DNA from: a virus
Taxonomy: Duplodnaviria > Heunggongvirae > Uroviricota > Caudoviricetes
Length of the DNA: 20,470 nt
Reading direction: 5' to 3' (one strand)
IMG/VR virus record: IMGVR_UViG_2585427735_000017
The position numbers and the translations under genes are program-made. Under the pieces are notes generated by a model that saw only the letters and a list, made by a program, of their open reading frames with translations, did not search any database and was not told the origin of the DNA. This document shows positions 12,725 to 16,120 of the stretch, piece by piece (the stretch's first letter is position 1; every line of letters starts with the position of its first letter).

Positions 12725-15700
12725 ATGGGTAAAGGCAGCAGTAAGGGGCATACCCCGCGCGAAGCGAAGGACAACCTGAAATCATCCCAGATGCTGAGCG
12801 TGATAGACGCCATCAGTGAAGGGCCGGTTGAAGGTCCGGTGGACGGATTAAAAAGTGTGCTGCTGAACAGTACGCCGGTGCTGGACAGTGAGGGGAATAC
12901 CAATATCTCCGGTGTCACGGTGGTTTTCCGGGCAGGTGAGCAGGAGCAGACACCGCCGGAGGGATTTGAATCCTCCGGCTCCGAGACGGTGCTGGGTACG
13001 GAAGTGAAGTACGACACGCCGATTACCCGGACCATCACGTCGGCAAACATCGACCGTCTGCGCTTTACCTTCGGTGTGCAGGCACTGGTGGAAACCACCT
13101 CAAAGGGGGACCGGAATCCGTCGGAAGTCCGCCTGCTGGTTCAGATACAGCGTAACGGTGGCTGGGTGACGGAAAAAGACATCACCATTAAAGGCAAAAC
13201 CACCTCACAGTATCTGGCATCGGTGGTGGTGGGTAACCTGCCGCCGCGCCCGTTCAATATCCGGATGCGCAGGATGACGCCGGACAGCACCACAGACCAG
13301 CTGCAGAACAAAACGCTCTGGTCGTCATACACCGAAATCATCGATGTGAAACAGTGCTACCCGAACACGGCACTGGTCGGCGTGCAGGTGGATTCGGAGC
13401 AGTTCGGCAGCCAGCAGGTGAGCCGTAATTATCATCTGCGCGGGCGCATTCTGCAGGTGCCGTCGAACTATAACCCGCAGACGCGGCAATACAGCGGTAT
13501 CTGGGACGGAACGTTTAAGCCAGCATACAGCAACAACATGGCCTGGTGTCTGTGGGATATGCTGACCCATCCGCGCTACGGCATGGGGAAACGTCTTGGT
13601 GCGGCGGATGTGGACAAATGGGCGCTGTATGTCATCGGCCAGCATTGCGATCAGTCGGTGCCGGACGGTTTTGGCGGCACGGAGCCGCGCATCACCTGTA
13701 ATGCGTACCTGACCACACAGCGCAAGGCGTGGGATGTGCTCAGTGATTTCTGCTCGGCGATGCGCTGTATGCCGGTATGGAACGGGCAGACGCTGATGTT
13801 CGTGCAGGACCGACCATCAGATAAGGTGTGGACCTATAACCGCAGTAATGTGGTGATGCCGGATGATGGCGCGCCGTTCCGCTACAGCTTCAGCGCCCTG
13901 AAAGACCGCCATAATGCCGTTGAGGTGAACTGGATTGACCCGAACAACGGCTGGGAGACGGCGACAGAGCTTGTTGAAGATACGCAGGCCATTGCCCGTT
14001 ACGGTCGTAATGTTACGAAGATGGATGCCTTTGGCTGTACCAGCCGGGGGCAGGCACACCGCGCCGGGCTGTGGCTGATTAAAACGGAGCTGCTGGAGAC
14101 GCAGACCGTGGATTTCAGCGTGGGTGCCGAAGGGCTTCGCCATGTGCCGGGCGATGTCATTGAAATCTGTGATGATGACTATGCCGGTATCAGCACCGGC
14201 GGGCGCGTGCTGGCGGTAAACAGCCAGACCCGGACGCTGACGCTCGACCGTGAAATCACGCTGCCATCCTCCGGTACCACGCTGATAAGTCTGGTTGACG
14301 GAAGTGGCAATCCGGTCAGCGTGGAGGTTCAGTCCGTCACCGACGGCGTGAAGGTGAAAGTGAGCCGTGTTCCTGACGGCGTTGCTGAATACAGCGTGTG
14401 GGGGCTGAAGCTGCCGACGCTGCGCCAGCGCCTGTTCCGCTGCGTGAGTATCCGTGAGAACGACGACGGCACGTATGCCATCACCGCCGTGCAGCATGTA
14501 CCGGAAAAAGAAGCCATCGTGGATAACGGGGCGCACTTTGACGGCGACCAGAGCGGCACGGTGAATGGTGTCACGCCGCCAGCGGTGCAGCACCTGACCG
14601 CAGAAGTCACCGCAGACAGTGGGGAATACCAGGTGCTGGCGCGATGGGACACACCGAAGGTGGTGAAGGGCGTGAGCTTCCTGCTCCGTCTGACCGTAAC
14701 AGCGGACGACGGCAGTGAGCGGCTGGTCAGCACGGCCCGGACGACGGAAACCACATACCGCTTCACGCAACTGGCGCTGGGGAACTACAGGCTGACAGTC
14801 CGGGCGGTAAATGCCCGGGGGCAGCAGGGTGATCCGGCGTCGGTATCGTTCCGGATTGCCGCACCGGCAGCACCGTCGAGGATTGAGCTGACGCCGGGCT
14901 ATTTTCAGATAACCGCCACGCCGCATCTTGCTGTTTATGACCCGACGGTACAGTTTGAGTTCTGGTTCTCGGAAAAGCGGATTACCGATATCAGGCAGGT
15001 TGAAACCACAGCCCGCTATCTTGGCACGGCGCTGTACTGGATAGCCGCCAGTATCAATATCAAACCGGGCCATGATTATTATTTTTACGTTCGCAGTGTG
15101 AACACCGTTGGCACATCGGCATTCGTGGAGGCTGTCGGTCGGGCGAGCGATGATGCGGAAGGTTACCTGGATTTTTTCAAAGGCAAGATAACCGAATCCC
15201 ATCTCGGTAAAGAGCTGCTGGAAAAAGTTGATCTGACGGAGGATAACGCCAGCAGACTGGATGAGTTTTCGAAAGAGTGGAAGGACGCTAACGATAAATG
15301 GAATGCCATGTGGGGCGTCAAAATTGAGCAGACCAAAGACGGCAAACATTATGTCGCGGGTATTGGCCTCAGCATGGAGGACACGGAGGAAGGCAAGCTG
15401 AGCCAGTTTCTGGTTGCCGCTAACCGTATCGCGTTTATTGACCCGGCAAACGGGAATGAAACGCCGATGTTTGTGGCGCAGGGCAACCAGATATTCATGA
15501 ACGACGTGTTCCTGAAGCGCCTGACAGCCCCCACCATTACCAGCGGTGGCAGTCCTCCGGTATTTTCCCTGACATCAGACGGAAAGCTGACCGCTAAAAA
15601 TGCGGATATCAGTGGTAGTGTGAATGCGAACTCAGGAACGCTCAACAATGTCACGATTAACCAGAACTGTACGATTAAGGGCATGCTGGAGGCGACCCAG

Positions 15701-15778
15701 GTCAAGGCGATATCGTCAAAACGGTCAGCAAGTCTTTCCCCCGCACGAACAGTTATGCCAGTGGCACCATCACGGTAA
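12725..15778 (+). CDS. J: Tail tip / host specificity protein J (central fibre), C-terminally truncated by frameshift
   Basis: 1017 aa ORF; [20 protein letters not shown]... is near-identical to lambda J over ~990 residues by recollection. The frame ends at TAA 15776-15778, whereas J-like sequence continues in other frames to 16120. Confidence 0.9.
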
Positions 15779-16120
15779 GAATCAGTGATGATCAGAAATT
15801 TGACCGGCAGGTCATGATACCGCCAGTATTATTCCGCGGTGGTAAGCATGAGAATTTCAACAGAAATAACCAACAGTCATACTGGTATTCAACCTGCCGG
15901 TTAAGAGTGACCCGCAATGGTCAGGAGATTTTTAATCATCCACGACGAAGGCCAGGGCGTATTTTCCTCAGTTATAGATATGCCTGCCGGACAGGGGACG
16001 CTGACACTGACATTCACCGTATCTTCATCAGGAGCGAATAACTGGACACCAACAACCAGTATCAGCGATCTGCTGGTTGTGGTGATGAAAAAATCCACAG
16101 CAGGTATCAGTATCAGCTGA
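15706..16120 (+). pseudogene. J: J C-terminal (receptor-binding) region displaced out of frame: J-like in frame +1 for ~75 codons, then back to the original frame
   Basis: From 15706 the shifted frame reads [13 protein letters not shown]...[27 protein letters not shown]..., alignable to lambda J GDIVKAASAAFPR...TVTVTDDHPFDRQIVVLPLTFRG. From ~15935 the original frame reads [25 protein letters not shown]...[10 protein letters not shown]-stop (16118-16120), alignable to the lambda J C-terminus. Confidence 0.7.

Follow-up and report, generated by a model that had tools for sequence, protein, structure and literature searches.

Displacement of an A8-like receptor-binding domain from the gene J reading frame in a draft-assembled lambdoid prophage

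In phage lambda, binding to LamB is the job of the C-terminal domain of the tail-tip protein J (gpJ). The J gene studied here, which lies within a window of 20,470 nt (the whole stretch of DNA that was analysed), shares with lambda gpJ (PDB 8IYK, 8XCJ and related) its place after K and I and before lom and stf, its length class (here 1131 versus 1132 codons) and its series of Pfam domains, and its C-terminal 204 residues match the 8iyk_J chain with E=1.8e-60. The two differ in that the frame of the window's gene is broken three times and in that its receptor-binding domain (RBD), once repaired, is just 57% identical to a lambda-like RBD. The displaced segment had already been described as divergent from lambda in a first-pass annotation of this DNA, and the identity value bears this out.

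A second described system is the GpJ A8 chimera (Brodel et al., Nature 2024), whose particles require OmpC to deliver DNA into cells from which lamB has been deleted (PMC11338833). A8 gpJ is intact and functional; the corresponding module of the window is out of frame, which makes its putative receptor use moot for this copy. In addition, the J genes of Turner, 2H10, SPF_0923, CP-1639 and the E. coli KK05-19 prophage present the RBD module at about 99% DNA identity (15704 to 16120), and for the KK05-19 prophage the likeness runs on through lom, stf and tfa. These genes encode J in one continuous 1132-codon frame and are B-type upstream of the RBD, whereas the window combines a J body of the A-type seen in E. 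coli 210205630 with three missing bases. Decaying cryptic lambdoid prophages, lastly, resemble this one in the loss of tail function through small lesions, which here include a 107-nt deletion in the tape-measure gene. They differ in that their lesions are scattered single ones, as opposed to the eight private changes that the window presents within 253 nt at allele boundaries.

Reading frames of gene J

Gene calls and Pfam matches outlined the order tape measure, M, L, K, I, J, lom, stf and tfa, which places the gene in the position of gpJ. The features relevant to the analysis are as follows.

7215..10341, + strand: tape-measure gene, disrupted at 7826/7827 by the loss of 107 nt, which leaves a 208-aa product and an 872-aa ORF in another frame
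12725..15778, + strand: in-frame part of gene J (1017 aa in the ORF list), with TAA at 15776-15778
15700..15714, + strand: blunt junction of J alleles located by alignments, lacking one base (deletion 1, which follows 15703) and with a private C at 15714
15704..15938, + strand: first RBD part by translation, in the frame one base behind J, about 78 codons ending in NGQEIFN
15939..15952, + strand: 14-nt island TCCACGACGAAGGC in the third frame, between deletion 2 and deletion 3
15953..16120, + strand: last 55 RBD codons, in the J frame again, with the stop at 16118-16120
16187..16786, + strand: lom (Ail/Lom outer-membrane protein), intact, downstream of J
16845..19886, + strand: side tail fibre gene stf, intact, in a KK05-19-like right arm
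19886..20470, + strand: tail fibre assembly gene tfa, intact, in the same KK05-19-like right arm

The 1017-aa ORF is gpJ-like over codons 1 to about 993, and its final 24 codons are read-through of the out-of-frame RBD. Pfam searches with this ORF matched FNIII-A_GpJ, Phage-tail_3, Ig_J, Ig_J_second and Phage_Tail_Tip and returned no match to Ig_GpJ_C (PF12421). This sixth domain completes the gpJ series in split form, across two segments in other reading frames: positions 15-72 of the PF12421 profile match the second-frame piece (15706-15936, E=4e-16) and positions 80-135 match the last piece, up to 16120 (E=7.7e-16), which the gene caller included in a 67-aa ORF (15917..16120). Both similarities are well above chance, and the whole displaced RBD makes up the last ~139 codons of J. 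A functional J is expected to be a single uninterrupted ORF of about 1130-1160 codons, and here it is interrupted by the stop at 15776-15778 and by three 1-nt gaps. In the deposited sequence the C-terminal RBD sits outside the J reading frame, with the ancestral length kept to within one codon (a total span of 3396 nt versus 3399 nt, or 1132 codons plus stop, in intact relatives).

Much of this anatomy had been read from the letters in the first-pass annotation. Its J frame closing at 15776-15778 after some 990 lambda-like codons, its J-like protein going on in another frame from about 15706, its return to the J frame to end at 16118-16120, its near-ancestral span (1131 versus 1132 codons) and its out-of-frame receptor-binding region all agree with the ORF list, the translations and the domain matches. 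The mechanism advanced there, a 1-nt loss near 15705 compensated by a 1-nt gain near 15935 at a T-run, was upheld in part only. The alignment to J relatives that it called for did place the indels, but comparison with five intact relatives revealed three 1-nt deletions instead of one loss and one gain. The loss corresponds to deletion 1, after 15703 (its placement is ambiguous within 15700-15704). There is no gain: the TTTTT run at 15929-15933 is unaltered in the record, and deletions 2 and 3 follow 15938 and 15952, where the relatives carry G and T, respectively. The roughly 75 codons thought to be out of frame become about 78 in the second frame, and the further 14 nt in the third frame, about five codons, had been missed. 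The three losses are also without functional compensation, because the stop at 15776 separates the first from the other two. A sequencing error of the homopolymer type was considered and discarded, no lost base lying in a homopolymer and the T-run being intact.

A summed shift of -3 and the conservation of the ancestral gene length are the only features that would favour programmed recoding, in which three one-base-back ribosomal shifts would yield a full-length 1131-aa J. No X XXY YYZ slippery heptamer was detected in the relevant frames (15600-15780, 15780-15960 and 15900-15960), and all homologues, from the infectious phages Turner, 2H10, SPF_0923 and CP-1639 to thousands of prophages, present an uninterrupted frame in which each of the three sites has one more base. 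No homologue shares the two-frame arrangement, and the stop falls 24 codons past the first site. We hence treat recoding as excluded.

An A8-like domain on a different J body

The repaired C-terminus matches residues 225-428 of the 9wca_J chain with E=1.3e-123, and the repaired RBD (EGDIVK...AGISIS) equals the RBD of the 'A8 gpJ' chain (PDB 9wca/9wcb, 'A8 gpJ 713') save for two private replacements, S>R and D>K. At the DNA level it matches the published GpJ A8 module, including ...AATCAGTCCACGACGGATGCTCAGGGC... (supplement of PMC11338833). By these likenesses, the displaced domain is of the OmpC-using A8 gpJ type and not of the LamB type of lambda.

The body to which this domain is attached is of a different type. 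Up to 15703, the 1017-aa ORF shares 99.5% identity with J of E. coli 210205630 (A-type, 1137 aa), and to the right of the junction the sequence is the B-type RBD module of phage Turner and E. coli KK05-19. Full-length examples of the two types are the J genes at 250152-253565 of NZ_CP015912.1 (A-type) and at 3598450-3601848 of NZ_CM144239.1 (B-type). Deletion 1 falls exactly on this blunt A/B junction, within a zone lacking homology, and homologous recombination does not create phage mosaics in this manner. The first-pass annotation contains no mention of an allele junction at this point. Neither an in-frame nor an identical A/B junction was present in the complete E. coli genomes searched. 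A scan for the in-frame ancestor, GACCCAGGTC[N]AAGGCGATAT, produced 0 matches in IMG/VR and four in JGI metagenomes and GTDB genomes, all of them fortuitous, 21-28 nt long and located in DNA with no relation to J. Furthermore, the best matches of the repaired hybrid C-terminus in the protein collection reached 95% identity and were all pure B-type, with no hybrid among them.

Uniqueness and assembly context of the lesions

In addition to the three deletions, J carries five private substitutions. Two of them lie in the island (site 2), where A for G at 15948 and G for T at 15950 convert a GAT codon to AAG (D>K); the remaining three are the C at 15714 and changes at 15828 and 15864. All eight changes are contained within 15700-15952 (253 nt), and the 20-kb window has no other unpaired indel besides the tape-measure deletion. 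Compared with KK05-19, the following approximately 500 nt present 0 changes, and identity is complete from 15953 to about 16500. The junction and lesion sequences of the record are marked by the exact k-mers GACCCAGGTCAAGGCGATATC, TTTAATCATCCACGACGAAGGCCAGGGCG, TTTAATCATCCACGACG and GACGAAGGCCAGGGCG.

Neither the eight changes nor any intermediate was found in 5,426 finished E. coli genomes (some 2,900-4,100 B-type places), and island-region changes or intermediates were absent from 2,938 B-type places in finished genomes. None of the lesions was detected among 50,697 phage records, and none in IMG/VR. The best identity across the lesion sites in finished E. coli genomes was 95.1-95.5%, and the segment 15704..15938 reached 98.7% at best in these genomes. 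Among 153 billion gene positions, the exact 1017-aa and 67-aa products mapped to a single contig (GCA_000713905.1). As expected for an artefact, the lesions are limited to one draft and absent from every finished genome with the same allele.

These searches also bear on a natural RBD variant, a sub-case of the artefact in which a true in-frame hybrid of A-type body and B-type RBD (S>R, D>K) lost just three bases as errors, for example by the dropping of ambiguous consensus bases. Both site-2 substitutions affect one codon (GAT>AAG) and one private substitution outside it is synonymous in the RBD frame, which would speak for such a variant, and RBD residues of lambda J are known targets of diversifying selection. 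Against this, no allele with the AAG codon or the hybrid junction was found in any collection searched, the site-2 changes being absent, with or without gaps, from finished genomes and IMG/VR. We consider a variant of this kind very unlikely.

The source of the lesions is one Illumina/MaSuRCA draft, that of E. coli 3_475_03_S1_C2 (GCA_000713905.1; JOQC00000000; sample SRS568289). MaSuRCA first builds super-reads and then applies Celera overlap and consensus, with contig ends merged under tolerated mismatch, and its recommended setting for bacteria is probably a 25% scaffolder error rate, with that much mismatch allowed in contig-end merging. The strain was sequenced with HiSeq 100-bp reads and assembled with MaSuRCA 2.3.2 (strain table, PMC6222053). 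Finished E. coli genomes contain a median of three J-matching places, and the 5.5-Mb source strain probably also holds several near-identical J paralogues. A 99.98%-identical prophage in an independent k-mer assembly (Logan SRR1186690) breaks at about window positions 1359 and 10739, which means that this genome carries the L-K-I-J region more than once. Only the NCBI contig came up when exact copies of the 67-aa ORF, Lom and Stf were sought, and the Logan prophage is fragmented beyond about 10739, ahead of J. The source contig itself starts inside the prophage (its base 3 corresponds to base 1 of the window), and the record presents another private base, a C at 8764 that stands against A in the Logan contig and in 702 genomes.

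Contigs in other drafts start at the equivalents of 15713/15715 and 15935-15962, and partial J products in other drafts cover only the final 52-61 codons (64 contigs, for instance, carry one of 55 aa and 45 contigs one of 59 aa). The lesions are thus located at the edges of within-genome repeats, where contigs break, which is indirect evidence for an artefact; the coincidence is partly biased, because the protein cluster that was inspected gathers fragments of similar length.

An assembly error had been named in the first-pass annotation as a cause to exclude. With all the lesions private to one MaSuRCA draft, an artefact is no less likely than a real pseudogene, and we consider an error of assembly or consensus their most likely cause. 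The clustering of the changes and the blunt junction without homology also speak for it. Pieces of different J alleles would have been joined, or their consensus mixed, where the paralogues cease to be identical. The join points would be the start of the RBD module and a position about 55-60 codons ahead of the J stop, and each join would have lost one base and left a few wrong bases nearby. In that case J would be uninterrupted in the living phage genome, or two prophages would each carry a different intact J gene. We infer that the joins were the source of the errors from the observed lesions, their uniqueness, the break-point positions, the assembler and the repeated tail region. Points against an artefact are that Illumina data seldom yield indels and that the rest of the contig is clean, its flanking chromosomal genes being at full K-12 lengths; moreover, a wholly novel junction is not expected from every assembler stage, because super-reads use k-mers present in the reads. 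A consensus contaminated with A-type sequence was rejected as a full explanation. It would fit the C at 15714 and the A at 15864, but in register it does not fit 15828 or either site-2 substitution, and because the latter mismatch the A-type, mixing of the two known parental alleles is insufficient.

Possible real decay of a defective prophage

Three independent assemblies share the 107-nt deletion that shifts the frame of the tape-measure gene, the truncated product being present also on the Logan contig (SRR1186690) and on an ENA metagenome contig. The deletion is verified as a real defect of the same prophage, independent of the J lesions. Because this deletion is inactivating, J would already have been under relaxed selection, which makes real decay plausible. 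On this reading, a lambdoid prophage occupying the lambda attachment site would have been dead through the tape-measure deletion when two resident J alleles underwent an illegitimate (microhomology) exchange, and an A-type J body would have come to be followed by a B-type RBD with a shift of one base. The two further 1-nt deletions and the five substitutions would have arisen by error-prone repair synthesis or later neutral decay, leaving a 1017-aa J without RBD in a prophage unable to make infectious tails.

Consistent with such a pseudogene, the 324-kb contig is continuous across the junction and site-2 sequences and otherwise lacks unpaired indels. Prophage remnants in which a deletion stops at the J RBD, such as gpI-RBD and DUF1441-RBD fusions, are furthermore common in the protein collection. 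Neutral decay, however, does not give the roughly 50-fold local excess of private changes, for which a rare single complex event is needed. A blunt junction without homology and two -1 deletions, all at natural mosaic or contig-break points, would be an unlikely coincidence, and the lesions appear in no independent data set. Elsewhere, the prophage and its intact relatives share 99.5-99.8% identity, which leaves little time for decay. A real pseudogene hence remains a credible but less probable explanation than an artefact.

It is improbable that the lesions are real and stem from one mutagenic event, in which an illegitimate J-allele exchange at the start of the RBD module would have been accompanied by error-prone repair in a wild gut E. 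coli. If true, a natural scar of break-associated mutagenesis would be preserved here, consisting of three -1 deletions together with five substitutions, none of them more than 250 bp from the breakpoint. A search of the window for a template-switch source of the site-2 changes detected no direct or inverted repeat of at least 12 nt covering the changed bases.

Whether artefact or pseudogene, the interruption of J is a familiar kind of event in a well-known gene family, and in a prophage that is independently defective it carries little biological weight. The analysis does advise caution: where a short-read draft seems to contain 'compensated frameshifts' in prophage tail genes that exist in several copies, these need to be checked against the reads before loss of a receptor is claimed. 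Its useful positive outcome is that the displaced RBD, attached to a different J body, could be typed by its sequence as A8-like and putatively OmpC-using. Should the junction be real and formerly in frame, it would constitute one more exchange of an RBD module at a domain boundary.

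Reading frames and single-base losses in J

The lambda-like tail-tip gene J is represented in the ORF list by two open reading frames lying in the same frame:

12725..15778, J, in-frame ORF of 1017 aa
15917..16120, ORF of 67 aa, same frame as J

Three-frame translation of 15600-16140 revealed that the J-like protein exits the J frame, runs on one base behind to ...NGQEIFN, and re-enters the J frame to end in ...AGISIS*. Pfam searches identified the FNIII-A_GpJ, Phage-tail_3, Ig_J, Ig_J_second and Phage_Tail_Tip domains in the 1017-aa ORF, with no match in it to the C-terminal receptor-binding domain (RBD), Ig_GpJ_C (PF12421). 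Positions 15-72 of this profile map to 15706-15936 (E=4e-16) and positions 80-135 to 15917-16117 (E=7.7e-16). Since these two pieces match PF12421, and intact relatives match the whole profile in a single frame, the frame structure described in the first-pass annotation is real and beyond chance.

That annotation had explained the frames by a 1-nt loss and a 1-nt gain at a T-run, and had proposed aligning the J C-terminal region to relatives. J is one CDS of 3399 nt (1132 codons) in phages Turner and 2H10, and a single 1132-codon CDS is also present in SPF_0923 and in the E. coli KK05-19 prophage. Megablast against phage records aligned 901 window bases to 904 bases of relatives with intact J, and the alignments and gap listings showed that the window lacks a single base at three places:

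after 15703 (GGTC^AAGG), deletion 1, placement ambiguous within 15700-15704
after 15938 (AATCA^TCC), deletion 2, G in relatives
after 15952 (GGC^CAGG), deletion 3, T in relatives

No inserted base was found in the window J relative to these sequences, and the T-run at 15929-15933 is unaltered. The frames had hence been read correctly, but the indel model was wrong. The three deletions add up to -3, which accounts for the 1131 codons spanned versus 1132, and they do not restore the protein, since the stop at 15776 sits between deletion 1 and deletions 2 and 3. The 14 nt between deletions 2 and 3 read in the third frame and carry two substitutions in one codon (15948, A for G; 15950, G for T; GAT to AAG). 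At 15714, 15828 and 15864 the window also differs from all five relatives compared that carry a B-type RBD (the module of Turner and KK05-19). These private changes total eight, all within 15700-15952, and none was detected from 15953 to ~16500 against KK05-19.

Programmed recoding was considered and excluded. No slippery heptamer is present at any of the three sites, and the arrangement is conserved nowhere: the same frame structure was sought in homologues from intact phages, and all homologues, infectious phages included, encode J in one frame.

Allele junction and distribution of the lesions

Deletion 1 falls at a junction between two J alleles. A prophage of E. coli 210205630, whose 1137-aa J carries a different RBD (A-type), shares 99.5% identity with the region 10200-15703. 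From 15704 to ~20000, a stretch that takes in the B-type RBD, lom, stf and tfa, the sequence hardly differs from that of the KK05-19 prophage. Diagnostic bases are all A-type up to GGTC and all B-type from AAGGCGAT, defining a blunt switch, one base short, where the two alleles share no homology. An in-frame or identical A/B junction was absent from 5,426 finished E. coli genomes and from IMG/VR, and four hits in JGI metagenomes and GTDB genomes were all chance matches. Searching a 5.8-billion-cluster protein collection with the repaired hybrid protein returned only pure B-type proteins (<=95%). Of the 24 positions at which the A-type body departs from E. coli 210205630, 18 lie in one 300-nt stretch (13800-14100), an ordinary in-frame mosaic patch within J.

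Finished E. coli genomes offer ~2,900-4,100 B-type places, and none of these has any of the changes at site 2 (deletions 2 and 3 and the bases between them) or any intermediate; the site-2 changes were likewise absent from IMG/VR. The best identities in the finished genomes were 95.5% over 86 nt, 98.7% over 15706-15938, and 97.2% with the gaps alone repaired. Only one contig, JOQC01000002.1 of GCA_000713905.1 (E. coli 3-475-03_S1_C2), encodes exactly the 1017-aa and 67-aa products. Window base 1 is base 3 of this contig, which therefore starts inside the prophage, in the head region. The strain (ST200, phylogroup B1, O127:H27) has a 5.51-Mb draft in 176 contigs, assembled from 100-bp HiSeq reads with MaSuRCA 2.3.2 (Richter et al. 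2018, PMC6222053, Table S1 for strain data).

Other irregular J-related ORFs are present in public data. PhiR29_2 (PV340557.1), deposited as a 'complete' phage genome, has J annotated as two overlapping CDSs (928..2919 and 2897..4324), split at a different place from the window lesions. The repaired-hybrid search also returned ORFs in public assemblies joining the B-type RBD straight to other prophage proteins (P0073, P0078; also P0074 and P0079), with a DUF1441-type N-terminus ahead of the RBD in P0073 and the N-terminal two-thirds of gpI fused to ...DISGNVNANSG...RBD in P0078. This suggests that they are remnants of prophages, or misassemblies, broken immediately upstream of the RBD.

A defective prophage and the origin of the J lesions

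The window comprises the late region of a lambdoid prophage, with a P22-coat-like capsid gene, tape measure, M, L, K, I, J, lom, stf and tfa. To its right (contig 20546-25888) lie a GGDEF/MASE4 gene, a YbhB-like PBP gene and bioA, bioB and bioF, which by K-12 gene order is the classical lambda attachment region, with J/stf/tfa facing bio in the lambda orientation. The first ~1.39 kb (1-1390) has no match to SPF_0923, otherwise the closest phage record, and neither of its two ORFs of >=90 aa (280-651 and 706-1173) has a Pfam hit; the left arm of the prophage is on another contig. In 6280-7215, a YdaY-family ORF (PF27119), whose position makes it a possible tail assembly chaperone, precedes a stretch of ~470 nt with a small called ORF, presumably the position of the G/GT programmed frameshift in lambda-like phages; the tape-measure gene comes next. 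Long ORFs of 335, 372 and 189 aa that overlie the Ala/Ser-rich repeat of the side tail fibre gene stf (17070-18470), in alternative frames or antisense to it, are spurious and arise mechanically from its GC-rich, low-complexity coding sequence.

The tape-measure gene carries a lesion of its own:

7215-10341, tape-measure gene, 107-nt deletion at 7826/7827 versus SPF_0923 and >1,000 E. coli genomes

The deletion yields a truncated 208-aa product and an 872-aa remainder in another frame. Unlike the J lesions, it was seen independently: a Logan contig from a k-mer assembly of SRR1186690, which differs at one base in 4,627 nt, and an ENA metagenome contig, with three mismatches over 2,623 nt, both encode the exact 208-aa product. 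Because of this recurrence the tape-measure lesion is real, and the prophage is truly unable to build tails. The Logan contig covers only ~1359-10739 of the window, and the SRR1186690 assembly graph is tangled from gene L onward, as expected if the L-K-I-J region were present more than once; finished E. coli genomes contain a median of three J-matching places.

The J lesions probably originated in the draft assembly. They are strictly private and extremely dense locally, with clean flanks and a blunt, homology-free junction, and all three indels are single-base losses outside homopolymers. Furthermore, they coincide with recurrent contig ends of other drafts, a coincidence partly biased by how the inspected protein cluster was formed: short RBD-lom contigs of other E. 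coli drafts start at TTGTCAAAACGG or GTCAAAACGG (window 15713/15715), and many partial J products start 52-61 codons before the stop (15935-15962), including products of 55 aa (first residues QGVFSS, 64 contigs) and 59 aa (first residues TTDAQ, 45 contigs). These positions are natural mosaic boundaries of J alleles, at which short-read assemblies systematically break; because identity between J paralogues begins or ends there, the assembler must join pieces. In its Celera stage MaSuRCA derives a consensus and joins the ends of contigs while tolerating some mismatch, and can yield sequence in no read; joins or consensus at J paralogue boundaries would thereby create such bases. A further private base, C at 8764 (AAAAAAT[C/A]CCCG), points in the same direction: the 99.98%-identical Logan contig, SPF_0923 and 702 of 702 finished E. 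coli genomes with a match have A there, and the C reflects either an error in the consensus or a SNP of the strain.

Less probably, the lesions are those of a real pseudogene, J being free to decay in an already dead prophage; unpaired indels are absent from the remainder of the contig, the neighbouring chromosomal genes are full length, and Illumina-based assemblies seldom invent indels. This origin, however, needs one rare complex event, illegitimate exchange with error-prone synthesis, falling by coincidence on assembly-graph boundaries. Whether the draft assembly erred at J paralogue boundaries or J is an ordinary pseudogene of a defective prophage, the feature is not novel.

Identity of the displaced receptor-binding domain

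The interpretation that the displaced domain is a non-lambda RBD was borne out. The repaired RBD is 57% identical to a lambda-like RBD and differs from the 'A8 gpJ 713' chain of PDB 9wca/9wcb only by the private S>R and D>K changes. The GpJ A8 DNA in the supplement of Brodel et al. 2024 (PMC11338833) encodes the same module, including an intact AATCAGTCCACGACGGATGCTCAGGGC, and in that paper the transduction of lamB-deleted cells by A8 particles depends on OmpC. The earlier guess of a non-LamB specificity is thus supported by identity to A8, which uses OmpC in lamB-deleted cells. The B-type RBD is widespread: >1,400 finished E. coli genomes carry it, as do Stx-converting and further lambdoid phages.
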